Source: Myxococcales bacterium
Lineage (GTDB): Bacteria > Myxococcota_A > Polyangia > Polyangiales > DASUME01
Direction of reading: 5' to 3'
NCBI GenBank assembly: GCA_047601445.1
Contig: JASGJH010000001.1
Span: 7,328,001 to 7,392,000, forward strand
Length of the DNA stretch: 64,000 nucleotides
Shown here: in pieces, positions 40,200 through 59,125 of the stretch
Layout of the letters: each line of letters starts with the position of its first letter
Position numbering within the stretch: position 1 is the first letter of the stretch
Notes under the pieces: model-generated
What the model saw: the letters and a program-made list of their open reading frames with translations, nothing else
Told to the model about the DNA's origin: nothing
Databases searched by the model: none
Position numbers and translations under genes: made by a program

Positions 40200-40718
40200 T
40201 CAGCCCAGGCGCCACATGCAGGACCAGGCAAGCTCGCCCTTGTCGTTCTTGACGCAGTTGCATTCAGGACCGCTCAGCGCATCGGGCCAGATGCAGCTCT
40301 GATTCTCGACCTGACAAGCCTCGCCTTGCTTGCCCTCGCGGAAGTCGTGGCCGCACACCTTGCTGTGATCGCAGGCGCACCGTCCGGTCTTGTTCGTCCC
40401 AGTGCACGGCTGGTAGCACGAGCGGATATCGCTGGGATCGGAGCCGGCGTCGCCATCGCCGTGGGCGCCGCCATCGCCGTGGGTGCCGCCGTCGGCGTGG
40501 CTAGGGCGGTCACCATCACCATCACCATCACCATCACCATCACCATCACCATCACCATCACCATCACCGTCACCATCACCGTCACCTTGCCATTTGTCGG
40601 GCAGCGTCGGTGGAGAGTCCTCGCCACAGCCCACGCCGAACGCTGTGGCGCACGCGACCGAAGCCAAGGTCAACAGCAGTGCGTGTGCACGTCGATGTGC
40701 AGGAGAGGAGAGCTGCAT
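40200..40718 (-). CDS. Small lipoprotein with (Gly-Asp)n linker and Cys-rich domain
   Basis: Lipobox GVGC; about 13 GD units; Cys-rich C-terminus. Confidence 0.75.
   Translation of the reverse strand: MQLSSPAHRRAHALLLTLASVACATAFGVGCGEDSPPTLPDKWQGDGDGDGDGDGDGDGDGDGDGDGDGDRPSHADGGTHGDGGAHGDGDAGSDPSDIRSCYQPCTGTNKTGRCACDHSKVCGHDFREGKQGEACQVENQSCIWPDALSGPECNCVKNDKGELAWSCMWRLG
40510..40586. repeat. Hexanucleotide tandem repeat (TCACCA/TCACCG)n encoding Gly-Asp on the minus strand
   Basis: About 13 near-perfect units directly visible. Confidence 0.9.
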
Positions 40719-40809: not shown

Positions 40810-42378
40810 TCAGGGGTGAGCGACCGCGCCGGTCATCCGCTCGTAGAAGTCGAACACGTCGATCTTCGCCAGCGGCCGGTAGTTGCGGAACTCGCGGGCG
40901 AAGCGCACATCGCGGCTAAAATAGCGCAGATAATCGAAGTTCTTCTTCTCGCAGTCCAACACGGCGTCGTTGCGGTCCACGGCGACGATCTGGGGTTTCT
41001 GCTCGAGGAAGCCCTCGATCACCTTCTGGTAAACGAAGCGCTCGGACTCCGGCTGGGCCTCCACGGGGCGGAAGCCACCCTCGTGGGTCTCGCACTGCTC
41101 GTACACCCCGCGCAGCGCCCACAGCGACATGAACGGCATGGTCATGCGGAAGTCCGCGTAGTTCATGGAGGGGAACTGCGGGTACATGCCGGCCGAGAGC
41201 ACCAGGGCGCGCTGGTTGCCAGGCGTCTTCGTCATTACGTCGAGCCACTTGCGGACGGGGCTCTCCGAGAACGTGATTTGGTCGCGGAAGGGCGACAAGC
41301 GCAGGCCGTCGAGGAAGAGGAAGGGAATCAAGAGGCACGCCGCGAGCAGCGTGGTGGCCTCGCGCGTGAGCGTGTTGGACGCCAGGGCGTGTCGCTCCAC
41401 CAGGTCCGTGAGTGTCACGATGACAAGTAACAGCGTGGCGATGAGCGCGGGCACCGAGTGGTAGTCCCAGCCCTTACCCTGGAGCGCCGAGACCAGCGCC
41501 GCCGCCGCCGCGAACAAGCAGAGCAGGCGCGCTAGCGTCATGCGTCCGATGAAAGCAATGCCCCCCAGGATGGGTAACAGGAAGGTCACCGGAGCGAGCT
41601 CCAGACCCACCAGGATCTTGCCGGTGTTGGAGAGCATCTGCGCCGGGGTCGTGTAGGCCTCGGTGGCGAAAGGAATTACGACCGCGATGTATTCGGGGGT
41701 GCCGATCAGGGCCAGCAGCAGGTGCACTACGAGCACCCCGGCGATCAACCACGGCACCGGATCGCGCAGCGTCACGCGCAGACCGCGCGCCCGCAATGCG
41801 TAGACCTCCACGGTCACGAGCGGCAGCACGAAGTGAGGCTTGATGGCGAAGCCGAGGCCCGCGATCAAAGCGATGCTGACGGTCTGCCAGCGCGGCACGC
41901 TTACGCCCTCGACGCGCAAGGTGCTGAGGACGAGGTACGGCACCGCGGCCACCATCAAGAGGTGCTCGCGCTGGCCGAAGCAGCGGCCCGGATCGACGCC
42001 GAGCGCGAACAGCACGGCGAGCGGAAGGATGCGCGCGGTGAGTCTGCCGAGCTGAGCCTCGTGCCGGCGCGCGAGTTGCCAGACCAGACCGACCGAGATG
42101 GCGATGGCTGCGACCACGTAAATCGAGAACCAGGTAGGTCCATCCAGGCCCAAAGTCGCCGCGGTGAACTCTGCCGGCACATGGAGCGCGATGGCCCATG
42201 GGGTGTTCGGATCGATCACATCGACATAAAGGCGATCTCCCGCGAGCCAGCGCTTGGCCACGTACAGGAGGCAGCCCACGTCGAGGTTGATCGGCGGGTA
42301 GAGATGGCTCCCGACCCAGCAACACACGACGAGCAAAAGGGCGCCGTAGACGAAATCCGACAGCTTTCGCGACTGCAT
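40810..42378 (-). CDS. Polytopic membrane protein, probable GT-C glycosyltransferase
   Basis: Many TM helices; first loop INLDVG...LYVDVIDPNTP; GQREH, IKPHF and QGKGWDYH motifs; divergent from the GT2 operon. Confidence 0.65.
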   Translation of the reverse strand: MQSRKLSDFVYGALLLVVCCWVGSHLYPPINLDVGCLLYVAKRWLAGDRLYVDVIDPNTPWAIALHVPAEFTAATLGLDGPTWFSIYVVAAIAISVGLVWQLARRHEAQLGRLTARILPLAVLFALGVDPGRCFGQREHLLMVAAVPYLVLSTLRVEGVSVPRWQTVSIALIAGLGFAIKPHFVLPLVTVEVYALRARGLRVTLRDPVPWLIAGVLVVHLLLALIGTPEYIAVVIPFATEAYTTPAQMLSNTGKILVGLELAPVTFLLPILGGIAFIGRMTLARLLCLFAAAAALVSALQGKGWDYHSVPALIATLLLVIVTLTDLVERHALASNTLTREATTLLAACLLIPFLFLDGLRLSPFRDQITFSESPVRKWLDVMTKTPGNQRALVLSAGMYPQFPSMNYADFRMTMPFMSLWALRGVYEQCETHEGGFRPVEAQPESERFVYQKVIEGFLEQKPQIVAVDRNDAVLDCEKKNFDYLRYFSRDVRFAREFRNYRPLAKIDVFDFYERMTGAVAHP

Positions 42379-42521
42379 GTCCCCCACTTGCCTCGACTCA
42401 GGTCGCTAGTTGTTGCAGATGGGGCGAAAATCCACAAGTGGTCCCAAAAAGGGGCCAGTATTCTTGACTTTGGCGCTCGCGCGCACCTAATTGCGCGGCT
42501 GGTCCGGCGCAAGAGGTGCGG

Positions 42522-43508
42522 ATGAGCGGCGTTTCACAGGGCTCGGCAGGCAAGCGTTACGGCTTGAGCATCGTCGTGCCGGTCTACAACGGTGCGAGCA
42601 CCATCGAGGCGCTGGTGGATGCGCTGGCTGGGCTCACCATCGAAGGCGGCCAGGAGATCATCCTGGTCAACGACGGCAGCCCCGACAACAGCGCGGAGAT
42701 CTGCCGCAAGCTCACCGGGCGCAAGGACGTACCCGTCACGTTCTGCGATCTCTCCCGCAACTTCGGCGAACACAACGCGGTGATGGCCGGGCTCTCGCAA
42801 GCGCGCGGGGACTACGTCATCAACATGGACGACGATCTGCAGAACCCGCCCGAGGAAGTGGCGCGGCTCTACGACTACACGCGCCAAAACGGACTCGACG
42901 TCGTCTACACCTACTACGACAAGAAGGAGCACGCCGGCTGGCGCAACCTGGGCAGTTGGCTCGCCAATCGCTCGGCCGACCTCCTGCTCGACAAGCCGCG
43001 CGGACTCTACCTCTCGAGCTTCCGCTGCATGTCGGCGTTTCTGGTGAAAGAGGTGGTGCGCCACACCGGGCCCTATCCCTACGTGGACGGTCTCATCATG
43101 CAGACCACTCAGCGCATCGGCAGCTTGAACGTCAAGCACCTGCCGCGCGCCGTGGGTCGCAGCAATTACACGATGCGCAAGCTGGTGCGCCTGTGGCTAT
43201 CGATCTTCCTGAACTTCTCGGTGGCGCCTTTGCGGGTCGCCTCGGTGTTCGGGCTGGGACTCGCCGTGCTCGGTGTGCTCGCTTTCGCGGCCGTGGCCTA
43301 CGAGGCGGTGGTGCAAGGTGGCACGCCGCGCGGTTGGGCTTCGGTGATGGGGGCGGTGCTGCTGCTCTCGGGAGCCCAGATGCTCATGCTCGGGATCATC
43401 GGCGAATACCTGGGGCGGTTGTTCATGACCACCAATGCGCGTCCGCAGTACATCATTCGCGAGACGGTGCAGCCGGACGCGGAGCTCAAGAGCAGGAGCG
43501 CCGGCTGA
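42522..43508 (+). CDS. Polyprenyl-phosphate glycosyltransferase, GT2 (ArnC/GtrB-like)
   Basis: IVVPVYN, VNDGSPD, SRNFGEHNA, MDDDLQNPPEE, two C-terminal TMs, GIIGEYLGR. Confidence 0.92.
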   Translation: MSGVSQGSAGKRYGLSIVVPVYNGASTIEALVDALAGLTIEGGQEIILVNDGSPDNSAEICRKLTGRKDVPVTFCDLSRNFGEHNAVMAGLSQARGDYVINMDDDLQNPPEEVARLYDYTRQNGLDVVYTYYDKKEHAGWRNLGSWLANRSADLLLDKPRGLYLSSFRCMSAFLVKEVVRHTGPYPYVDGLIMQTTQRIGSLNVKHLPRAVGRSNYTMRKLVRLWLSIFLNFSVAPLRVASVFGLGLAVLGVLAFAAVAYEAVVQGGTPRGWASVMGAVLLLSGAQMLMLGIIGEYLGRLFMTTNARPQYIIRETVQPDAELKSRSAG

Positions 43509-43587
43509 GCGCGGGCTCGATAGCAGGAGCGCGCGCTCCACGCGGCGTGCGTCAGCTTCGTCGTGGCCCTGGCAGGGAGATCTCAAC

Positions 43588-44715
43588 ATGATCTTGATGA
43601 ACGACTTCAAACGCCACGTCGACCTACTGCACGATGAGCTGCAGGCGGCCATGGAGCGCGTGCTGCGCAGCGGCTGGTTCGTGCTCGGCAAGGAGGTCGA
43701 GGCCTTCGAGCGTGAATTCGCCGACTACGTGGGCGCGCCCTTCGCGGTGGGCGTGGCCAACGGTATGGATGCGCTGCAGCTCGGCTTGATGGCCTGGGAC
43801 ATCGGGCCCGGCGACGAAGTGATCACCACGCCCAACTCGGCCTTCGCCAGCACACTCGCCATCCTGCGCGTGGGCGCCACGCCGGTGTTCGTGGATATCG
43901 ACGAGCGCAGCTATGCTCTCGACGCCAGGCTCGTGCGCGGGGCCATCACCGAGCGCACGCGCGCCATCTTGCCGGTACACATCTACGGGCGCGCCGCCGA
44001 GCTGGAGTCGCTCGCGGAGCTCGCTTCCCAACACGGGTTGATGCTGTTGAACGATGCCTGTCAGGCCCATGGCGCCACCTATCGCGGGCGCTCCATTCCG
44101 AGCTTCGGCGATGCGGCGGCCTACAGCTTCTATCCCACCAAGAACCTCGGCTGCTTCGGGGATGGCGGCATGATCGTGTGCTCCGACGCCGCTCGCCACG
44201 CGCGCCTGCGCTCGCTGCGCGACTACGGACAGGCCAAGCGCTACCACCACCTCGAGGCAGGGCTGAATAGTCGGCTCGACGAGCTGCAGGCGGCGGTGCT
44301 GCGCGTGAAGCTCGCCCACTTGCGCGCCCACACCGAGCGCCGACGTGCCATCGCTTCCAAGTACATCGAGGGGCTCAGCGGGTTGCCACTGGTGTTGCCC
44401 CAGTACGATGCCGAGGCCGTTTGGCACCTGTTCGTGGTGCGCACCCCGCAGCGCGACGCGCTGTCCAAGTTCCTCGCGAGCCAGGACGTGCAGAGCCTGG
44501 TGCATTATCCGGTGCTGATCCCGGCCCAGCCGGCCATTCACAGCTCGCCCGCCCAAGGGCGTGCTTCGACGCCCATTCCTTACACGCGCGGCAGCTTGCC
44601 AGTGGCCGAGCGCTGCGCCGACGAGTTCCTGTCGCTCCCCATCCACGCCGAACTCAGCGACGTCGAAGTCGAGCGCGTGTGTCAGGCCGTGCGCGCCTAC
44701 TTCGAGCGCGCGTGA
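43588..44715 (+). CDS. DegT/DnrJ/EryC1/StrS sugar aminotransferase
   Basis: GPGDEVIT, DACQAHGA, SFYPTKNLG (PLP Lys), NSRLDELQAA. Confidence 0.94.
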   Translation: MILMNDFKRHVDLLHDELQAAMERVLRSGWFVLGKEVEAFEREFADYVGAPFAVGVANGMDALQLGLMAWDIGPGDEVITTPNSAFASTLAILRVGATPVFVDIDERSYALDARLVRGAITERTRAILPVHIYGRAAELESLAELASQHGLMLLNDACQAHGATYRGRSIPSFGDAAAYSFYPTKNLGCFGDGGMIVCSDAARHARLRSLRDYGQAKRYHHLEAGLNSRLDELQAAVLRVKLAHLRAHTERRRAIASKYIEGLSGLPLVLPQYDAEAVWHLFVVRTPQRDALSKFLASQDVQSLVHYPVLIPAQPAIHSSPAQGRASTPIPYTRGSLPVAERCADEFLSLPIHAELSDVEVERVCQAVRAYFERA

Positions 44716-45677
44716 GCGAAGCGGCTCCGCAGGGCAAGCCGCGTTCGGCGCTGTTCGGCCGCCTGATGCTGGGCACCATCCTGGTGTTCTTCGGGCTCTC
44801 GGCCGCCGAGCTCGTGCGGCGCTGGCGCGCCGAGCCCTTCGAGCTCTCGCTGTCCTGGGCGCTGCTCTCGATGCTGCCGTTGTTCGTGGGGTACGCGGGT
44901 GTGGCCTTCGCCTTCCAGCGCATCCTCACGACCCAGGCTCCGGGCCAGGCGCCGTTTCCCGCGGTCTTCGAGCTCTATTGCCGCGGCCTCATCGCTCGCT
45001 ATTTGCCGGCCAAGGTGGGCATCCCAGCGGTGCGCATGGCGGCCGCCAAGGAGTTCGGGGTCACGCCGGCATTCATGGCGGCCTCCGCAGTGCTCGAAGC
45101 GCTCTCGTCTCTCGCCACGGCGGGGTTGTTGGTGGCAGGCGTGGCGCTCGGTCCCTGGCCCATCGTCGGGTTGAGTGCGCTGTCAACGCAGCCATGGGCT
45201 CCCTGGGCCATCGCGGCCATCGTGCTCGGCGTGGCGATGCTCGCGGCCATCGACGTGCGCTTCTATCCGCGCCAGTTGATGACCTTTCTGCGCCTCGAAC
45301 AGCGCAAGGGGCCGCTGCTGCCGCTGTGGTGGATCGCGGGCGAGGCCTGGCTTTGGATCGCGAATGCGGCTTCGTGTGTGTTGGTGGTGCGTGCGCTGAC
45401 CGGCTCGTCGGAGGCCATGTTGCTCGGCGGAGCCTCGGGCATCATCGCGCCTGCGCTCGGGTTCTTCGTGGTGATCGCGCCGGGAGGACTCGGCGTGCGC
45501 GAGGCCATCGCGGTGGCCCTGATGGCGCCGGAAATCGGTGCCACCAAGGCGCTCGCGTTCGGCCTGGTCTCGCGCGCGGTACTGCTGGTCAGCGAGCTCG
45601 TGCTGTGGCTCGGGGCACGGGCGTGGCTCGGCGTCGCGCGGCGTGCGCAGGTCGAAGAGGGAACCCGGCAAGAGTAG
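44712..45677 (+). CDS. Lysylphosphatidylglycerol-synthase-like TM / flippase-like protein
   Basis: RYLPAKVG and APGGLGVRE motifs, multi-TM; GTGA overlap with the aminotransferase. Confidence 0.8.
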   Translation: MSEAAPQGKPRSALFGRLMLGTILVFFGLSAAELVRRWRAEPFELSLSWALLSMLPLFVGYAGVAFAFQRILTTQAPGQAPFPAVFELYCRGLIARYLPAKVGIPAVRMAAAKEFGVTPAFMAASAVLEALSSLATAGLLVAGVALGPWPIVGLSALSTQPWAPWAIAAIVLGVAMLAAIDVRFYPRQLMTFLRLEQRKGPLLPLWWIAGEAWLWIANAASCVLVVRALTGSSEAMLLGGASGIIAPALGFFVVIAPGGLGVREAIAVALMAPEIGATKALAFGLVSRAVLLVSELVLWLGARAWLGVARRAQVEEGTRQE

Positions 45678-47768: not shown

Positions 47769-48056
47769 CTAACACTCGTAGTCGACGATGGCGACGGCTC
47801 GAGAGAGCTCGCGCATCACGCCTAGAACTACCCGGTGGGCCGGGTGCTTTTCGTATGCCTCGAGTGCGCTGCGATCATCGAAGCACACCGTCGCAACGAT
47901 GTCGTACGAGAACGACGTAGCAGCGAAGTCTGCTCCGATCTCGAGAGCGCGAATGCTCTCGATGTCCTTCCGCAAGGATCCGATCGCTGCCACGGCACGC
48001 TCGAGATTCTCGGGAGATCTGGCGTGAAGTTTGAACATGACCACGTGCTTGATCAT
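47769..48056 (-). CDS. Dabb (stress-responsive alpha/beta barrel) protein
   Basis: MIKHVVMFKL...FDDRSALEAYEKHPAH...VDY. Confidence 0.88.
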   Translation of the reverse strand: MIKHVVMFKLHARSPENLERAVAAIGSLRKDIESIRALEIGADFAATSFSYDIVATVCFDDRSALEAYEKHPAHRVVLGVMRELSRAVAIVDYEC

Positions 48057-48229: not shown

Positions 48230-48817
48230 ATGAAGAGCGTGGGCGTGTACTGTGGATCGGCCGAAGGAACTCGGCCGCGATATCTCGAAATCTCGAAGCA
48301 GGTCGGCCGAGCGCTCGCGACGCGTGACCTCGAGCTCGTGTACGGAGGCGCGAAGATCGGACTCATGGGGGCCATGGCGGACGCCGCGCTGGAGGCGGGG
48401 GGACGCGTTTTCGGGGTGCTCCCTGCTGCCTTGAGCAAGGTCGAGATCGCACATCCCGGGCTCACGGAATTTCGCGTCGCAGGCTCGATGCACGAGCGAA
48501 AAGCGATGATGGCCATGCGATCGGACGCTTTCGTCGCGTTGCCCGGCGGGTACGGCACGCTGGACGAGATCTTCGAAGCGCTCACCTGGGCCCAGGTCGG
48601 CATTCATCAGAAGCCGTGCGCGTTGCTCAATGTCGATGGGTTCTTCGACTCGCTGATCGAGTACCTCGATCACGCGACCAGCGAAGGCTTCATTCGGCCG
48701 ATGCATCGACCCATGCTGCTCGTCGAGACCGACTTCGAGCGTTTGCTCGACCGACTGCAGCTTCATTTTCCAGCTTCGAATGCGCCGATCATGTCCGCGC
48801 ATTCTGTCGAGGCATGA
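48230..48817 (+). CDS. log: LOG-family cytokinin riboside 5'-monophosphate phosphoribohydrolase
   Basis: VYCGS, LVYGG..GLMG, MHERK and PGGYGTLDE (PGGxGTxxE signature); GGAGG RBS before ATG 48230. Confidence 0.93.
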   Translation: MKSVGVYCGSAEGTRPRYLEISKQVGRALATRDLELVYGGAKIGLMGAMADAALEAGGRVFGVLPAALSKVEIAHPGLTEFRVAGSMHERKAMMAMRSDAFVALPGGYGTLDEIFEALTWAQVGIHQKPCALLNVDGFFDSLIEYLDHATSEGFIRPMHRPMLLVETDFERLLDRLQLHFPASNAPIMSAHSVEA

Positions 48818-48892
48818 AGGCCAGGGAATTCAGCGCTCAAGCGCAGCGTGCGGTGCTTTTCGATGGGGGCTTTCGAGGGGGGATATCACGCC

Positions 48893-51013
48893 ATGAAGAT
48901 TCACATGATTCTTGGTCCTACAGGGGTGGGGAAAACGAACCGGTCCATCTCTTTGGCGCGGCAGAAGAGCGTGCCAGTCATCTCTCTGGATCGATTCCAG
49001 ATCTTCGATGAGCTCGCGACGGGAACCGGGCGACCGACTCCCGAGGAACTCGCAGGAACCGAGCGCATTTTCCTCGCCAGGCGTCGTGTCGCTGAGGGCG
49101 AGTTTCCCGCCGATGAGGCCTATCAGGCTCTCCTCGGATGGGTCGACGCGCTCTCGCATCATCACGAACTCATCCTCGAAGGTGGTTCCATCTTGCTGTG
49201 CTCGACTCTGTTCGAGCAGGGATTCCTGAGCGCGCACCAAGTCGAAATTCAGAATCTGACGATCCGCGATGTCGACTTCCACCGAAACACCGTCAAGAGC
49301 CGCATCCGTGAAATGCTGGTCTCCACCGATGGTCGCCCCTCGATGGTCGAAGAGCTGGCCAGGGTGTGGAACGAGCCAGCGCAGCTCTCCTTCCTGGAGA
49401 CTATCACCGGCTACGACATCATCATCGAGCATTGCCGGCGGCTTCGCATGACGCCGGGCGATGTCGCGGCGCAGCCGGTGGCCGCCGACCTAGTGGATGC
49501 GATCGCCGAGTCACACGTCGACTACTCGCTGCGACAGATCGCGGCCTTCGCGCGACTCTTGAGCGACCATACGTCACGCTGGAAAGTCCAGTACATCTCC
49601 GAATACACCAGGCCCAATGCGAGCGTGGCGCACGAGTCCTCACGCGGGACGGCATCCGTGGAGGAGAGCTCCAAAACGCCCAGTGACAGCCAGTTCGACC
49701 TCTCGTCGCCGGCCAGGCTCGATGACCCCTATTCGCTGTACGCTCGCCTGCGGCGAGAAGCCCCGGTGTTCCACGACGCCGCGCTCGATGCCTGGATCAT
49801 CAGCCGCTATGACGACGTGTGCTCGATCCTGAAGGACCCGGTGCGGTTTTCTTCGATAGGTGTCCTGAAGGTCAAGGCCGAGCCGCCGCCGGAGGTCGCC
49901 GCGGTGCTCGCGCAGGGAATCCCGTACGTGCGTACCCTCATCGACAACGACCCCCCGGGCCACACGCGCTTTCGCAACCTGGTCAACCGAGCTTTCGTTC
50001 CTCAGCGGGTCAACCAGCTCGAACCAAAGATTTACGCGAGCGCCAACGCCCTGATCGACGAGATCGTCGACAGCGGGGAGTGCGATCTCATGGAGCGCTT
50101 TGCGTTCCCGCTGCCCATCTTCGTCATCGCGGAGATCTTGGGCTTGCCGCGCACGGACGTCGGTGATCTCAAACGCTGGTGTGACGACTGGATGGCACTC
50201 CAGTCTGGAACGGCCCCCGTCGAACACCTCGTGCAATGTGCTCACAGCTATCTCGCGATGCAGCAGTACTTCCTCCAGAAGGTCGCGGAGCGTACGCATG
50301 AGCCGCAGGACGATATGTTGAGCGCGCTCATCCAGGCGCGCGTCGACGACGACGCACCCTTGGCTACGGGCGAGCTGGTTCGCTTGCTGATGAGTCTCTT
50401 GGTCGCGGGCCACGAGACCACCACGCATTCCATCGGCAACGTGCTGACGCTCCTGCTGAGGAACCCGACTCAACTCGCTCTGCTTCGCTCGAACCCGAGC
50501 CTCACGGCGCAAGCGGTCGAGGAAGGATTGCGGATGGACGCCCCCGTCCAGAGCCTGTTCCGCCGGGTCACAGAGGACACCACGGTCGGCGGGACCAGCC
50601 TGCCCAAGGGGGCACGGGTCATGATCCTGTACGGATCGGCCAACCGCGACGAGGCTCAGTTCAAGGATCCCGACCGTTTCGATGTTGCGCGCGGCTCAGG
50701 CGGAAAGCATCTCGCGTTCAGCCGCGGCATTCACTTCTGCCTTGGTGCCACGTTGGCCCGCATGGAGATCCGCATTGCGCTCGATCTCTTGATCCAGCGC
50801 TTGCCCGAGCTGCAGTTGGATGAGAGCCTGCCCCTGGAGCGAGTGCCCCACTTCTTTTTGCGCGGCTACAAGCGCCTGCCACTCAAGTGGAATCCGAACC
50901 CGCAGTCCGCAGGCTACCCGAGTGGAGTGTTCGGTAAGTTCGTGAATACGAGCGAGAGTGCTCTCGCTGACTCGTCCACGCTCGAGCCGAAGAAGACGGC
51001 ATCGCATGACTAG
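48893..51013 (+). CDS. ipt: Adenylate isopentenyltransferase (Ipt/Tzs-type) fused to cytochrome P450
   Basis: N-terminal GPTGVGKT, SLDRFQ, TGTGRP..EL..T.RIFL, LILEGGS, PSMVEEL...W; C-terminal DPPGHTRFR, AGHETT, EEGLR, SANRD, HLAFSRGIHFCLGA; no stop codon between the domains. Confidence 0.9.
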   Translation: MKIHMILGPTGVGKTNRSISLARQKSVPVISLDRFQIFDELATGTGRPTPEELAGTERIFLARRRVAEGEFPADEAYQALLGWVDALSHHHELILEGGSILLCSTLFEQGFLSAHQVEIQNLTIRDVDFHRNTVKSRIREMLVSTDGRPSMVEELARVWNEPAQLSFLETITGYDIIIEHCRRLRMTPGDVAAQPVAADLVDAIAESHVDYSLRQIAAFARLLSDHTSRWKVQYISEYTRPNASVAHESSRGTASVEESSKTPSDSQFDLSSPARLDDPYSLYARLRREAPVFHDAALDAWIISRYDDVCSILKDPVRFSSIGVLKVKAEPPPEVAAVLAQGIPYVRTLIDNDPPGHTRFRNLVNRAFVPQRVNQLEPKIYASANALIDEIVDSGECDLMERFAFPLPIFVIAEILGLPRTDVGDLKRWCDDWMALQSGTAPVEHLVQCAHSYLAMQQYFLQKVAERTHEPQDDMLSALIQARVDDDAPLATGELVRLLMSLLVAGHETTTHSIGNVLTLLLRNPTQLALLRSNPSLTAQAVEEGLRMDAPVQSLFRRVTEDTTVGGTSLPKGARVMILYGSANRDEAQFKDPDRFDVARGSGGKHLAFSRGIHFCLGATLARMEIRIALDLLIQRLPELQLDESLPLERVPHFFLRGYKRLPLKWNPNPQSAGYPSGVFGKFVNTSESALADSSTLEPKKTASHD

Positions 51014-51036: not shown

Positions 51037-51468
51037 TTAGCGATATCTCGCGTCGACGGAGCTCGGCAGGCTCTTCAACCAGCCGATGGCCTCGTCTTCT
51101 CTCGCGAAGAGCTTGGTAGGCGTCTCTCGCGTGCCGTACACGGCGAGGAAGAAGTTGCCGAGGATGTTGCCGACGAGCGAGCCTCCCAGCAGCGCCAGCG
51201 CCTGGAAGTCTTTGAGCCCTCCGAAGTACGCCCGCGCCTCGTGATCGATCTCCTTACACTTGCGGATATCGACCAAGATGGCCAGACGTTCACCCTTGGC
51301 GAGCTTCAGCTGCGCCTCGACGTTCTCTTTGGCTCCGGCCAGCGTGCACACGGATCCCTGATTGAATTCGAAGCGCAGGATACCGAGGTCTCTGTCGATC
51401 CAAGTGGACCCGGTGCTCGTCTGCACCTTTTCTATCTCCGGACGGAGCTTTCCCCCCTGCGCCCTCAT
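51037..51468 (-). CDS. Small STAS/SpoIIAA-like alpha/beta protein
   Basis: ILVDIR...IDHEARAYF...LGNFF...PTKLF..EDEAIGWL pattern; GGAGG upstream. Confidence 0.7.
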   Translation of the reverse strand: MRAQGGKLRPEIEKVQTSTGSTWIDRDLGILRFEFNQGSVCTLAGAKENVEAQLKLAKGERLAILVDIRKCKEIDHEARAYFGGLKDFQALALLGGSLVGNILGNFFLAVYGTRETPTKLFAREDEAIGWLKSLPSSVDARYR

Positions 51469-54133: not shown

Positions 54134-56077
54134 TCAGAGCAAGATCACGTCGCCGCAGTAGCGGTTGATGCACTGGGTGGCCTCGCCGCAGCAGTCGCTC
54201 ACGTCGCTGCAGCGCTCGCCGTCCTTGGCGCACTCTTGCTTGGTGGAGCTGCACATGCCGAGCTGGTCCACCGTGAACTCGCCGGCGGGCGGGAAGTTGC
54301 AGTAGCCGCCGCAGCAGTCCGCACCGCTGCGGCATCCGTCGCCGTCTTTCTTGCACGGATCGAGCGCGGTGAAAGCGCGGTGGTTCGAGGTGTCGAAGTC
54401 CTGGCCGGACACGTAGAAGGCGGGGCTGCTCGGGTCGCCGGTGTACTTGCCGTCGGCGGATACCTTGAGTGCGCTGCCCCAGAGCTGACGCTTGAAGCCC
54501 TGGTTGCCGTAGTGGCGCATGGAGTCGAAGAAGATCCAGAAGTAGCCACCCGACGCGACTGGGGACACGGTGGGGTAGTAGGCCTGATGGAGCTCCTCGG
54601 AGCCGAACGGTAGGTAGGTCTTGTTCGAGCTCGCGTCGGCCACCTTATCGAAGCCCATGGCCTTGGCGAGCAGCGTGGCCTGCTTGCTCTTCACGTCGAC
54701 CACGTAGATGTCGCTCTCGGGGCCGCGCGCGATGGCGGCCGAGATGCCCACACCGTTGCCGTCGAAGGCCGAGTCGGAGCCGAGCGCGAACACGGCGCCG
54801 CCGTTGTCGGGCAAGAGGAAGGGCCAACCGGGGTAAAGCGTTGCGTGGCTGTAGATGCTGCGCGCGTTCGCGACCTTGCGGTTCTTGGCGTCGTAGTCCA
54901 TCAACGAGAGGGCGTGGCCGGAGCTTTGTGCATTGTCGTTGAACACCAGCAGGTTTCCGTCGGGGGAGAAGGTGGGCATCATGGCGGTGGTGGGGATGCC
55001 AGAGTTGTTCACTGCGTTGCCGCTGTCCGTCTCGTAGAGTCCAGAGCTGGCCGCCGCTGGCGGGAGCACGCCGCCGTTGAGGAGCGGGCCCACTGTGAGG
55101 CTCGATGCCGAGCTGACGTAGACCGATCCATCGGGTGAGATGCCGACGAAGGAGCCCGACGCGATGCCATGGGAGGGAGCCGGATTGGCCGGCGTCATGG
55201 GCGCGATCTGATACACGGAGCCGGTGCCCGTGATGCCCGTGGCCTCGCTCGCCACCAAACGCGAGCCATTGGCGGAGACCGAGTGACACCCGGTGCACGT
55301 GCCCTGACGTGCGAACTGCGCGGCGTCCTTGCCGGGCTGGATACGCTGGATGGCGCCCCCGCCGCCGAAGCCCCCGCCGGAGGTCTCGTAGCTGTTGTAG
55401 AAGATGGAGCCGCTCAAGGTGGCATTGGCGATCACCAGCTTGCGCGTGAGGGGCCCGCGCGCCGTGTCACCGCTCAGGAAGGAGAGCTCGATGCTGAAAG
55501 GCTCCGCGGGACCCTGGGTGCGCGCGCCCGCTTGCGTCCACACGTTGGCAGGGATTTGGATGCGTCCGTTGGCCGTGGGCTTGAGGCAGCCCTTGTAGTC
55601 GAAGCCCTTGGCGCTGATGTGCAGGTAGATGGCGTCGGCGTTGCTGCCGTCCCACATCATGAGCGGCGCCTTGAGGCCGCGCGGAAAGACGGTGCCTTCG
55701 TACGGATAGAGCACGCGCATGCCCGTGCTGCTGCCACCCGCCATCAACTTGCCGAGCTTGTCGGCCGAGAGGCCGGCGGGATTGTCGGCGCCGCACTGAT
55801 CGACCGCGTAGGGCGCGTCGAGCGGTTGATCGCCGGGCACGTCGGGCTCTGCGTCGCCGTCGCCATCGCCATCGCCGTCGCCCGCTGGATCACCGTCGCC
55901 ATCGCCATCGCCCTTGGCGTCGCCATCGCCGGGGTTGCCTTGGCCGTTGCCTGGCGCGACGGTGCCTTTGGGGTCTCCGCAAGCCGCGCTCGCTAGCGCA
56001 GCCAGCAGTGCAACGAGGAGGCGTGCTCGTGGTGAGCGGAAGCAAGAAGCCGATGTCGAACGAAGCCCTGCGCGCAT
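54134..56077 (-). CDS. Lipoprotein with TolB-like beta-propeller and Cys-rich C-terminus
   Basis: Lipobox SAAC, GD linker, CTGCH, PTFSPDG repeats, terminal CK.DG..C....DCC modules. Confidence 0.8.
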   Translation of the reverse strand: MRAGLRSTSASCFRSPRARLLVALLAALASAACGDPKGTVAPGNGQGNPGDGDAKGDGDGDGDPAGDGDGDGDGDAEPDVPGDQPLDAPYAVDQCGADNPAGLSADKLGKLMAGGSSTGMRVLYPYEGTVFPRGLKAPLMMWDGSNADAIYLHISAKGFDYKGCLKPTANGRIQIPANVWTQAGARTQGPAEPFSIELSFLSGDTARGPLTRKLVIANATLSGSIFYNSYETSGGGFGGGGAIQRIQPGKDAAQFARQGTCTGCHSVSANGSRLVASEATGITGTGSVYQIAPMTPANPAPSHGIASGSFVGISPDGSVYVSSASSLTVGPLLNGGVLPPAAASSGLYETDSGNAVNNSGIPTTAMMPTFSPDGNLLVFNDNAQSSGHALSLMDYDAKNRKVANARSIYSHATLYPGWPFLLPDNGGAVFALGSDSAFDGNGVGISAAIARGPESDIYVVDVKSKQATLLAKAMGFDKVADASSNKTYLPFGSEELHQAYYPTVSPVASGGYFWIFFDSMRHYGNQGFKRQLWGSALKVSADGKYTGDPSSPAFYVSGQDFDTSNHRAFTALDPCKKDGDGCRSGADCCGGYCNFPPAGEFTVDQLGMCSSTKQECAKDGERCSDVSDCCGEATQCINRYCGDVILL

Positions 56078-56226
56078 GGCGACTCTCCAAGCGAAGACGT
56101 GCAAACCGGCGCGAGCTGCAGGCTCGCCCGCGCAGGACCTTACCCGCAAACCGAGGCCGTCCCTGAAGCTGACGCGTTAGGCCAACTGGTTTGTCGCAGC
56201 CAGCCAAGCACGAAGCCGCCGGCTTT

Positions 56227-57277: not shown

Positions 57278-59125
57278 TCACGGCGTTCCTCGCAGCTTGC
57301 TGACCACCATGTCGCGCTCCTTGCCGCCGCCGCTGGTGCTCGCCACTTGTCCTTGACCGTGCAGCCACACGTCGCCTCGTGTGTCGACGCCGAGGCCCCC
57401 GATGAAGGGCCTCTGGCCCCACTCGGGCGTGCGTGCCCAGATGAGCTTTTGATTGGCATCGAGCTTGAGCGCGAAGGGCATGCCGTAGCGGCTATTTCCC
57501 TCGGTCTGCGTGGCGGCGTCGTACGCGAGGGTGACGTCCAGAGCGTCGATCCTCCAGGGGGCGAAATAGCTTCCGCCGAGCGCGAGCGTGCCCTCGGCGT
57601 TGTGATGGAGCAGCTGGATGTAGGGTGAGGCTTCGAAGCCGAGGAAACCCGCATCCACCTCCTTGGGTGTCTGCACCTTGTTCTCCATGAACACGACCTT
57701 CGCGCCACGCGTGCCGTCGATCCCGAATGGTTGGATGCTCCAGCGGTCCGTCGTGGTGTACGTGGTGTCGTCTTCGTCGTAGATTTGCTCGTTGGCGAAG
57801 GCGCCGCTGTGACCGTCCGAGTAGCCGGCCATGGCTTGAATCCAGGCGTCGTCGTTGCTGATGGGGTTGCTCCACATCGGCGTCAGGTCGCTCATCGAGA
57901 CGGCCGTCAGCTTGGCCTCGGTGTTTGCAGGCGGCGCGAACAAACTGCCGAGCAAGTCGAAGCCACCCGAGCCGCCGTCCAGGAACACCAGCCGGTCGTT
58001 GGCACGCGCCAGCTGGTACACGGAGCTGGCCCGCTGACTCACGGAGTTGCCCTGCGCGTCCAGCTTGAGCAAGAAAGGCCGGTACGCCGTGACCGAGAGG
58101 TCGAGGGCACCGCGACCGAAGTCGGTCCAGGCGTGGGCCATGCCCGCCACGTAGAGCTGGCCCACATCGTCCACGACCGCGTCGCTGATCATGCCTCCCG
58201 CCGCCAGGCCTCCACCGATCGCGAAAGCCTTGCGATAGACCTGTTGACCCGCACTCGAGAACTTGTGAATCACTAGCTCGGTGGCGAACGTGGTCGATAG
58301 GGGCACCAGCGGGTTGAAGTTGATGAGAGGGCCCGCCATGGCGGCAACGTACGAATTCCCGGCCTTGTCGACGCTGAGCGCGAGGGGGATCAAGACGTCG
58401 CTCTTGAGGCTCGGGGCCATGACCTTGGTCCAAACCGGCTTGCAATCCTTGTCGTACTTGTGAATGAGCCCGTTGGCTGCGGAGCCCGAACTGACGACAC
58501 CGGCGCCCAAGTCCACGCGTTGACCGAAGGCTGCCATGATCACCACGCCATCGTCCGGGGTTGGCTGCAACGTGGAATGAAAGGCCTGCGACGCAAGCCA
58601 GGGTTGGTTGCTGAGCAGCACGTTGTCGTCGCTCGGGAAGTCGTAGCGATAGCGCACCTCGCACAGCACGGGACTCGCTGGATCACAGGACTTGATGCTC
58701 ACAGTGAGTTGGTCCGTGGCGGTACGTGCACTCGTGAGCTCGGCGCCGGCCTGGGGGACCTCGCTGAGCGTGAGGTCGTAGGTGGTGGTCTCGCCGGGAC
58801 AGACCTGGACCTCCTTGGTGCCGCTCAAGCCAGCGCTCCACGCGAAATGCAGCTCGGAGTCGCTCTCGGGCAGGGCCGCGCGCAGGGTGGTGCATTCACC
58901 CGGGCAGAGCTCGACCTTGTCTGCGCTCAAGGTGACCGCCCAGCCTTGCGACGCGGAGCTCCCATCGCCATCCCCGTCTCCGTCGCCCGGGCCAGGATCG
59001 GGCGTGCCGCTGTCGCCCTCCGTGGTTCGCCTGGTTTGACGGGAGGGGGCCGGATCGCCCGAGCAGGCGCCCAGGAGGAGTCCCAGGATCCACGCGCGAT
59101 GGGGCTTGGCTTTGGCCAAAATCAT
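57278..59125 (-). CDS. Lipoprotein with beta-propeller repeats
   Basis: Lipobox LGAC, GD linker, repeats VDKAGNSYV / VDDVGQLYV / KLDAQGN / VDTRGDVW. Confidence 0.78.
   Translation of the reverse strand: MILAKAKPHRAWILGLLLGACSGDPAPSRQTRRTTEGDSGTPDPGPGDGDGDGDGSSASQGWAVTLSADKVELCPGECTTLRAALPESDSELHFAWSAGLSGTKEVQVCPGETTTYDLTLSEVPQAGAELTSARTATDQLTVSIKSCDPASPVLCEVRYRYDFPSDDNVLLSNQPWLASQAFHSTLQPTPDDGVVIMAAFGQRVDLGAGVVSSGSAANGLIHKYDKDCKPVWTKVMAPSLKSDVLIPLALSVDKAGNSYVAAMAGPLINFNPLVPLSTTFATELVIHKFSSAGQQVYRKAFAIGGGLAAGGMISDAVVDDVGQLYVAGMAHAWTDFGRGALDLSVTAYRPFLLKLDAQGNSVSQRASSVYQLARANDRLVFLDGGSGGFDLLGSLFAPPANTEAKLTAVSMSDLTPMWSNPISNDDAWIQAMAGYSDGHSGAFANEQIYDEDDTTYTTTDRWSIQPFGIDGTRGAKVVFMENKVQTPKEVDAGFLGFEASPYIQLLHHNAEGTLALGGSYFAPWRIDALDVTLAYDAATQTEGNSRYGMPFALKLDANQKLIWARTPEWGQRPFIGGLGVDTRGDVWLHGQGQVASTSGGGKERDMVVSKLRGTP

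Follow-up and report, generated by a model that had tools for sequence, protein, structure and literature searches.

The question raised by this locus is what is made by a LOG gene and, directly behind it, a single open reading frame that joins an adenylate isopentenyltransferase (IPT) to a cytochrome P450. Within the window (the whole stretch of DNA that was analysed, 64,000 nucleotides of a Myxococcales bacterium), a preliminary description had placed a LOG gene ahead of one 706-aa frame, and both were confirmed; a Dabb gene, overlooked in that description, was found next to LOG on the opposite strand; the two are transcribed divergently, and their start codons are 173 bp apart. The features are as follows, in window positions.

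47769..48056, minus strand: Dabb gene, encoding a stress-responsive A/B barrel protein of 95 aa; PF07876, E 2.2e-17
48230..48817, plus strand: LOG-family nucleoside 5'-monophosphate phosphoribohydrolase, 195 aa; PF03641, TIGR00730
48893..51013, plus strand: whole IPT-P450 fusion ORF, 706 aa; six homologous fusions
48893..49558, plus strand: N-terminal adenylate isopentenyltransferase domain, residues 1-222 of the fusion protein; PF01745, E 3.5e-57
49559..49681, plus strand: interdomain linker of the fusion, variable and probably disordered; poor conservation among fusions, low pLDDT
49682..50890, plus strand: cytochrome P450 domain of the fusion, about residues 264-666; PF00067, E 8e-32

The fusion ORF runs free of stops from an ATG at 48893 to a TAG at 51013; its start codon lies 75 bp past the LOG stop and is preceded by a purine-rich run. 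An in-frame GTG at 48848 offers an alternative start (721 aa), and the database gene call begins at residue 5 (702 aa). A promoter and terminator scan of the region gave results at chance level. When databases were searched for the fused architecture, six further IPT plus P450 proteins were recovered (five among 5,971 candidates, and a sixth, P0028), 49-62% identical to the window fusion. Measured between two anchor motifs, the linker spans 33-53 aa across six fusions; the seventh, P0028, lies outside this measure. An assembly or frameshift artefact was ruled out by these six other fused proteins with their differing linkers; the IPT-P450 fusion is genuine. Gene context was covered for two of the seven fusions (the window and locus L023), in both of which LOG precedes the fusion, and for one of the seven stand-alone P450s of the same clade.

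The family's neglect was helped by its naming at source, which is 'cytochrome P450' only for four of the six other fusions and absent for two. No report of an IPT-P450 fusion, or of this P450 clade, was found in the mainly open-access full texts searched, in agreement with the initial statement that no such fusion was known. Stand-alone IPTs from two species of Chondromyces had already been listed (PMC10018469), so that an adenylate IPT from a myxobacterium is no novelty by itself.

The N-terminal domain had been read as an adenylate IPT, which profile search bore out (PF01745, 193.9 bits for the protein against a cut-off of 20, profile positions 1-225 of 233). The domain is collinear over residues 1-221 with the Agrobacterium Tzs/Tmr type (PDB 2ZE5), to which it is about 37% identical; this match has E 7.6e-38, and that to tRNA IPTs 1e-5. 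T10, D33 and R137 occupy the positions of the catalytic Thr10, Asp33 and Arg138, and R34 that of the AMP-binding Arg34 (roles from PMC8234997); T10, K14, D33 and R34 are common to all seven fusions, and the Arg138 equivalent is present in six, the exception being P0008, which has Trp in that catalytic column. In a quick IQ-TREE phylogeny of 68 rows, the adenylate IPTs, including the window domain, were split at SH-aLRT 100 from five MiaA-like rows, whose label rests on length and a weak N-terminal match; of the two families between which the preliminary description had wished to decide, the domain thus groups with the adenylate IPTs and apart from MiaA. Close to the fusions in this tree are the IPTs of Chondromyces apiculatus and C. 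crocatus, also myxobacterial, 47% identical and with an equal residue signature. These differ in being stand-alone; in C. apiculatus, neither a P450 nor a LOG was matched in the 8 kb on each flank, and the best match to the fusion P450 in its genome is 39-40%.

The residues that discriminate between prenyl donors were then compared. T170, T172, Y211 and A218 correspond to Tzs positions 171, 173, 214 and 221. The Agrobacterium enzymes make zeatin directly from HMBPP by way of D173 and H214, with no need of a P450; neither residue occurs in any of the seven fusions, and the window IPT, with T172 and Y211, is not of this HMBPP-using subtype. For IPT1 of Nostoc sp. PCC 7120, PMC4574047 reports assays in which AMP was the only acceptor, the rate with HMBPP was about 0.5% of that with DMAPP and tRNA activity was absent, and it gives the signature as R34, T171, V173, Y216 and A223. 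The window fusion (P0001) reads R34, T170, T172, Y211 and A218, so that four of the five positions agree and the remaining one has T where IPT1 has V; its acceptor is probably AMP only and its donor DMAPP. Cyanobacterial homologues are 40-43% identical to the window IPT, and the Nostoc host is non-pathogenic; the difference is that IPT1 stands alone, and none of the fetched cyanobacterial loci has a P450 match nearby.

The host genome (G000, one contig, 98.7% complete) carries HMG-CoA reductase, diphosphomevalonate decarboxylase and type 2 IDI (IDI-2) clustered at C1:6.188-6.195 Mb. IspG and IspH were not found in it, and were matched in 9 and 10 of 14 control genomes, respectively; this gene content suggests that HMBPP is not made by the host. 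Because the IPT is without the HMBPP-binding residues and the host apparently without HMBPP, the Agrobacterium shortcut would be closed, and a P450 would be needed for zeatin.

The LOG protein is of the short form, without a long N-terminal extension, and bears PGGYGTLDE at residues 105-113, its catalytic E113 aligning with the Glu that is replaced by Ala in PDB 5ZBK (PF03641, E 1.3e-42; TIGR00730, 189.9 bits, above the cut-off of 96.35). Its score against the cytokinin-LOG equivalog NF058542 was 138 bits, below the cut-off of 300, and the PGGxGTxxE motif alone confers no cytokinin specificity, as stated in PMC8989509. The window LOG is an extra copy, a separate LOG being encoded elsewhere in the genome; it is 73% identical to the LOG of L023 versus 56% to that other copy.

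An intact P450 had been proposed for the C-terminal part, and its hallmarks are all in place: AGHETT (505-510), containing the I-helix acid-alcohol pair E508-T509, E544-x-x-R547, and FSRGIHFCLG with the haem ligand C616. The modelled domain (pLDDT 93.7) has the P450 fold, with Z 47-54 to 50 solved P450 entries among the matches listed. The top structural match is CreJ (PDB 5GWE/5XJN), a P450 whose solved structure includes an aryl phosphate (Z 54.0 versus 51.4 for the next family, rmsd 1.8 A over 402 residues, TM 0.92); at only 31% identity to the P450 domain, this likeness is a weak hint only. There is no fused reductase, and a scan of adjacent ORFs showed no ferredoxin gene; the closest Fer2 match is about 167 kb away.

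In the P450 tree, all seven fused P450s fell into one 14-row clade with 99% support, and a contrast of 13 clade rows with 25 sister P450s identified clade-specific polar residues (K326, N352, Q437, R497, S501, H512, S554, H653 and Y659). P450s of the same family share, as a naming rule, over 40% identity. The fused P450 is 32% identical to FasA and 36% to Fas1, which fall in another clade, and so lies outside the FasA family. Because of this low identity and separate clade, the fused P450 is, by phylogeny, not a FasA orthologue and was recruited into the putative pathway independently; for the same reason, its reaction is not given by homology. A second link to IPT comes from a stand-alone clade member (P0172, WP_255382699.1, 63% identical), which is divergent from idi and IPT genes on plasmid pD of the alphaproteobacterium Ensifer adhaerens NER9; no LOG is annotated within 10 kb either side. 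The IPT of this plasmid is distant from the window IPT in the tree, and is also without D173 and H214.

As judged from its genes, the cluster very probably makes a cytokinin. The initial reading, that the products are of the iP and zeatin type, is supported, as an inference, by the IPT grouping, by the presence elsewhere in the genome of a separate miaA-like gene and a separate LOG, and by the clade P450 beside the Ensifer IPT. We think it fairly likely that DMAPP and AMP are joined to iPRMP, that the P450 hydroxylates iPRMP and that LOG releases iP and zeatin. The host mevalonate pathway and IDI-2, whose genes were found, would be expected to supply DMAPP. The IPT would move the dimethylallyl group to N6 of AMP, a chemistry established for the family, with a specificity predicted from the residues above. 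With electrons from a ferredoxin whose gene lies elsewhere, the fused P450 would then hydroxylate a terminal side-chain methyl, yielding a zeatin nucleotide; if CYP735A and FasA are a guide, a trans product would be likelier than cis, and because the P450 is fused to a nucleotide-making enzyme, its substrate would more likely be the nucleotide than the free base. LOG would remove ribose-5'-phosphate, again established family chemistry, with a specificity suggested by synteny. The product would most likely leave the cell and target a plant or an alga, the least certain step. The CKX domain PF09265, found in FasE, was not detected in the host genome (one of 14 controls matched), nor were CHASE domains, so that self-signalling is neither supported nor excluded.

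The same activities are combined differently in known systems. The fas operon of Rhodococcus fascians (FasA P450, FasD IPT, FasE CKX, FasF LOG) and the fas locus of Streptomyces turgidiscabies likewise cluster IPT, P450 and LOG (L088, L092), but as separate genes accompanied by a CKX and in plant pathogens; FasA and FasD are 32% and 26% identical to their counterparts here and belong to other clades. FasB and FasC are the electron-supply genes of the fas operon. A fasA mutant ties the R. fascians P450 to trans-zeatin-type cytokinins (PMC8234997), and IPT, P450 and LOG together lead to trans-zeatin in R. fascians (PMC8234997) and in Fusarium and Claviceps (PMC6337686). In the IPTLOG plus P450 clusters of Claviceps and Fusarium, and with the IPT-LOG fusion of R. 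fascians A21d2, the same three activities are likewise encoded by one fusion gene and one single gene (PMC6337686, PMC8234997); there, IPT is joined to LOG and the P450 is separate, whereas in the window the P450 is the fusion partner of IPT and LOG has its own ORF. For the fungal P450, the reported substrate is the free base iP, which it hydroxylates. Further IPT-LOG fusions were found in other proteins (P0043, P0067, P0078, P0080 and P0097). Plant CYP735A, compared by reaction only, hydroxylates the side chain of iP nucleotides, best on iPRMP according to PMC12066119, which is the reaction proposed here; it is an ER-membrane enzyme, whereas the P450 domain of the fusion resembles soluble bacterial P450s.

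Known cytokinin pathways include no Dabb gene, yet the one in the window travels with the fusion cluster: it is 66% identical to the Dabb of L023 versus 29% to the other Dabb-like copy of its own genome, and L023 was the sole match in a search over 74 IPT-bearing loci. In L023 it lies directly upstream of LOG, in an orientation different from that in the window. Some Dabb-fold proteins, such as olivetolic acid cyclase, are cyclases. A possible, though unlikely, alternative is that the P450 yields a product different from zeatin (an epoxide, an aldehyde or acid by repeated oxidation, or a ring-oxidised adenine), that the Dabb protein may cyclise or dehydrate it, and that a new prenyl-adenine natural product results, with the IPT and LOG chemistry unchanged. 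It would fit a P450 clade unrelated to FasA and a Dabb gene kept in both fusion loci seen while matching none of the 73 other IPT loci; it fits less well with the Ensifer split cluster, in which no Dabb match was found, with the change of Dabb orientation between fusion loci, and with the trans-zeatin made where IPT-linked P450s have functional data (PMC8234997, PMC6337686). A related and rather doubtful proposal is that the clade is an independently evolved cytokinin-oxidising family with a product that is not ordinary trans-zeatin: it would be either a cis-hydroxylase of free iP nucleotides or, with a Dabb cyclase, the source of an undescribed cytokinin-like adenine, signalling to plants, algae, amoebae or the myxobacteria themselves. 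The enzyme behind cis-zeatin is called an open question in PMC12066119.

That the cluster makes iP only, the P450 being a passenger or acting on an unrelated host substrate, is improbable. Most adenylate IPT loci fetched have no nearby P450 match, and myxobacteria are rich in P450s, this genome having eight other P450-like matches; against this, the fusion is kept in seven proteins, identity among them is higher in the P450 domain (55-70%) than in the IPT domain (44-56%), and a clade P450 adjoins a distantly related IPT in Ensifer. The idi gene of the Ensifer cluster points to DMAPP and away from a longer terpenyl group on adenosine, tailored by the P450 as in (2-hydroxy)sorangiadenosine. Myxobacteria do make N6-sesquiterpenyl adenosines from clusters with a P450, but the transferases there are of 509-518 aa and stand beside a terpene cyclase (PMC7321100); with a 222-aa Tzs-type (PF01745) transferase here, and the nearer of two terpene-synthase-domain matches in the genome (PF19086) about 0.5 Mb away, this product is very improbable. 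It is just as hard to believe that the cluster is a decaying, recently acquired relic without current function, since all three ORFs are intact and the catalytic residues and haem ligand are kept; in its favour, adenylate IPT was absent from nine of nine other genomes of the genus (72-99% complete, fragmented), and the region is somewhat low in GC (0.59-0.64 versus 0.66). Cluster GC3 is 0.73-0.79 (0.81-0.88 in most flanking genes), and because this is the 23rd-44th percentile of a noisy genome-wide background, base composition is weak evidence of gene transfer. Finally, a MiaA-type tRNA prenyltransferase, hinted at by a TIGR00174 match of 38.1 bits over residues 5-117, is scarcely credible for a domain that scores far under the cut-off of 148.65, lacks the tRNA-binding insertion when aligned with 2ZE5, separates from MiaA-like proteins in the tree and is accompanied by a separate miaA-like gene at C1:1365015.

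The cytokinin pathway itself is already known, and what appears to be new is the IPT-P450 fusion and a P450 group not yet tied to it. The step from iP-type to zeatin-type cytokinins is poorly characterised (PMC8234997); in that 2021 review, the FasA protein was uncharacterised and CYP735A unpurified. A bacterial P450 linked to IPT by fusion and, in an unrelated cultured host (E. adhaerens NER9), by synteny is a directly testable candidate; it is probably soluble and crystallisable, and might offer a one-protein route to zeatin nucleotides. If the zeatin route is correct, cytokinin synthesis would have recruited a P450 independently once more, and a lineage that is not known for plant pathogens would possess a hormone pathway in full.

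More distant P450s (40-46%) were present in 8 of 400 other genomes of the same order, none of them among the two same-order genomes with an adenylate IPT; the Acuticoccus sediminis P450 (P0170) had no match in a sample of 401 genomes from the order to which G061 belongs. A full-length model built on seven sequences had pLDDT 66, its low-confidence linker stretch extending into the start of the P450, and all Foldseek matches listed for it were P450s. ESM Atlas matches were likewise to generic P450 clusters (scores up to 0.80), and four loci on viral contigs matched the P450 part only, all at 37%.

The preliminary description placed a LOG gene directly 5' of a single 706-aa ORF joining an adenylate isopentenyltransferase (IPT) to a cytochrome P450, and both ORFs were borne out as described; a Dabb gene lies just beyond the stretch it covered.

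47769-48056, minus strand: Dabb gene, 95 aa, divergent from LOG
48230-48817, plus strand: LOG-family gene, 195 aa, PGGYGTLDE, above the TIGR00730 cut-off
48893-51013, plus strand: IPT-P450 fusion ORF, 706 aa, beginning 75 bases after LOG
51037-51468, minus strand: DUF7793/SpoIIAA-like gene, converging on the 3' end of the fusion

At its N-terminus the fusion carries a complete PF01745 domain over residues 1-222 (E 3.5e-57); after a linker comes an intact P450 with AGHETT, E544xxR547 and FSRGIHFCLG all present. In profile searches, the LOG fell below the cut-off for the cytokinin-LOG equivalog, and the LOG motif by itself is no proof of cytokinin specificity, according to the part of PMC8989509 drawn on here. 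The same profile searches gave the flanking genes as the convergent DUF7793 gene downstream and a response regulator upstream, neither with a demonstrable link to the cluster; because short DNA matches over the DUF7793 gene recur elsewhere in the host genome and in two same-genus genomes, this gene is probably not a cluster part.

The IPT-P450 fusion is real and rare. When the IPT part was used as query against proteins of 388-1236 aa, 6 of 5,971 candidates matched, namely the window protein and five other IPT+P450 proteins, and P0028 came from a search of 1.84 billion representatives; the database check proposed for the fused architecture thus yielded six further fusions, at 49-62% identity to the window protein. 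Of the loci retrieved by means of an IPT alignment, 22 from metagenomes and 51 from genomes, one (L023) held a fusion, whose translation matches the fusion P0005; there Dabb, LOG and fusion follow one another on the same strand until the contig end cuts the locus. Its LOG and Dabb are 73% and 66% identical to those of the window, whereas the host's own paralogues reach only 56% and 29%.

The host genome (9.5 Mb, 66% GC) contains MYXO-CTERM matches, which were found in 0 of 14 controls. No adenylate IPT was found in the nine other members of the genus (fragmented genomes, 72-99% complete) or in 400 others of the phylum sample, and one was found in 2 of 400 other genomes in the order; one of these two loci is identical to that of Chondromyces apiculatus (Polyangiaceae, Myxococcota; L108 and L045). 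The host is thus placed among the myxobacteria, in the order of C. apiculatus but outside its family. Such patchiness across genus, order and phylum samples suggests horizontal acquisition or wide loss, a reading that base composition backs weakly.

A quick tree with 68 rows placed the N-terminal domain among adenylate IPTs, apart from five MiaA-like rows at 100%; a separate miaA-like gene exists in the host genome. By Tzs numbering (residue roles from the consulted part of PMC8234997), the catalytic and AMP residues T10, D33, R34 and R138 are kept, and Thr and Tyr replace D173 and H214, on which the use of HMBPP by Tzs depends; the residue map placed D173 or H214 in none of the seven fusions. 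At the R138 column, the fusion P0008 has Trp for the catalytic Arg, with Arg residues just before, and may be impaired or shifted in alignment register. The active-site signature of the window domain resembles that of Nostoc IPT1, described in the excerpted text of PMC4574047 as using AMP only, with a rate on HMBPP near 0.5% of that on DMAPP and without tRNA activity. The host encodes two HMG-CoA reductases, a diphosphomevalonate decarboxylase and a type 2 IDI; IspG and IspH were not found in its genome. Because the IPT lacks D173 and H214 and IspG and IspH were not found, both direct routes to zeatin appear closed in the host, and the P450 would therefore have a clear job.

In a quick P450 tree of 44 rows, built with the first 32 stand-alone matches and with three long outgroup branches, the seven fused P450s and seven stand-alone proteins (56-66% identity) formed a 14-row clade (SH-aLRT 99), outside which FasA (32%) and Fas1 (36%) fell. 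Eight of 400 other same-order genomes (apparently the sample used for the IPT count, with 4-6 candidates scored per genome) carry sister P450s at 40-46%, and none of the eight has an adenylate IPT. A 65%-identical clade P450, P0170, comes from a named alphaproteobacterium, Acuticoccus sediminis. Another stand-alone clade member, P0172, the one of the seven whose gene surroundings were read, is encoded on Ensifer adhaerens NER9 plasmid pD, where it is divergent from idi and IPT and adjoins IS66 genes; no LOG is annotated in the 21 kb shown around it. This locus is a mobile, split version of the cluster in a cultured host.

L096:8269-11281 (NZ_CP101521.1): IPT-idi pair and, transcribed away from it, the clade P450, flanked by repC and IS66 genes

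Two further split clusters are probable from shared source and longest-contig size: P0168 with the stand-alone IPT P0009 (4,019 bases in both), and P0171 with the stand-alone IPT P0010 (5,125 bases in both). P0009 is sister to the fusion P0007 in the IPT tree, as is P0168 in the P450 tree. Fused and unfused forms interleave in both trees, so the two domains were joined, or split, on more than one occasion.

Comparison of 13 clade with 25 sister rows (fragment P0188 dropped) gave the clade-specific polar residues K326, N352, Q437, R497, S501, H512, S554, H653 and Y659, several of which, by P450 topology, we take to sit in substrate-recognition regions. Such positions would fit a polar, possibly phosphorylated substrate. 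The P450 domain model (pLDDT 93.7 on a 60-row alignment) found its best structural match in CreJ, whose structure was determined with an aryl phosphate (Z 54.0 vs 51.4 for the next), a likeness that may offer a hint to the substrate.

The IPT domain would convert DMAPP and AMP to iPRMP, the P450 would hydroxylate the side chain to give a zeatin nucleotide, and LOG would free iP and zeatin. The analysis shows the genes with their motifs, their co-occurrence and the pathway genes of the host, and the IPT and LOG chemistry is established at family level; we infer the P450 substrate and product, the P450/LOG order, the redox partner (eight Fer2 matches, all elsewhere in the host genome, are candidates), export and target. 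Formation of an N6-prenyl adenine by the cluster, and its oxidation by the P450, are highly probable; zeatin is the product we favour, with less assurance. Dabb is an unexplained partner of the cluster, and the main rival, which we consider unlikely, is that another oxidised or cyclised product is made with its involvement. We lean towards a plant target, since the plasmid form of the cluster is of rhizosphere soil origin. Neither a CKX nor a CHASE domain was found in the host genome; self-signalling is possible even so, because CHASE-independent cytokinin perception exists in Sinorhizobium (PMC13001267, in the part consulted).

The cluster works like the fas operon but is not a member, as no FasA orthologue and no CKX were found; it also works like the fungal IPTLOG + P450 clusters but joins another pair of enzymes (PMC8234997 and PMC6337686, in the parts consulted). 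Sorangiadenosine, a myxobacterial terpenyl-adenosine, is made by enzymes unlike those of the window (PMC7321100, likewise). In a survey covering 98 bacterial IPT proteins (PMC10018469), two Chondromyces IPTs are listed and PF00067 is counted 17 times among neighbours, so both a myxobacterial IPT and a P450 next to an IPT have precedents; the word 'fusion' is absent from its main text. No mention of the IPT-P450 fusion or of this P450 clade was found in the open full-text literature searched, which took in few supplements. The cluster has a real and conserved architecture, apparently undescribed, within a known pathway, and the clade is a new candidate group of cytokinin hydroxylases; the pathway logic and myxobacterial IPTs were already known.

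Other IPT loci had different layouts. In Ensifer sp. IC3342, three consecutive genes encode an adenylate IPT (PF01745 E 8.5e-99), a NUDIX/idi-like protein and LOG (L066:8001-10063), a layout shared by L062 (IC4062) and L033. IC3342 is a cytokinin-overproducing pigeonpea leaf-curl strain whose IPT gene had not been found, according to the part of a 2021 review consulted (PMC8234997); the L066 gene, with A173/Y214 at the HMBPP positions, looks like the missing one, and no report of it was found in the portion of the literature searched. L029, L031 and L061, one of them from a Noviherbaspirillum MAG, are compact clusters of idi, IPT and LOG in which no P450 matched. A divergent P450 (33%) precedes methyltransferase, IPT, LOG and xanthine-dehydrogenase-like subunits at L089:5316-12636 and L038 (Streptosporangiaceae MAG), possibly a methylated, ring-oxidised cytokinin pathway using yet another P450. 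In Lentzea flava (L058:3508-8702), a GNAT acetyltransferase and two P450s, both unrelated to the clade, lie directly 5' of an adenylate IPT. P0067, P0078, P0080 and P0097 are IPT-LOG fusions, and P0043 (543 aa) is a LOG-IPT fusion in reversed order.

Elsewhere in the window, two further kinds of feature were recorded.

40810-45677: probable glycan-modification group, with a 525-aa hydrophobic protein without Pfam match, a DegT aminotransferase and, judged by eye, a glycosyltransferase and a membrane protein
~40200-40718, 54134-56149 and 57278-59125: several lipoprotein-like ORFs in which GD dipeptide repeats lie close to the N-terminus
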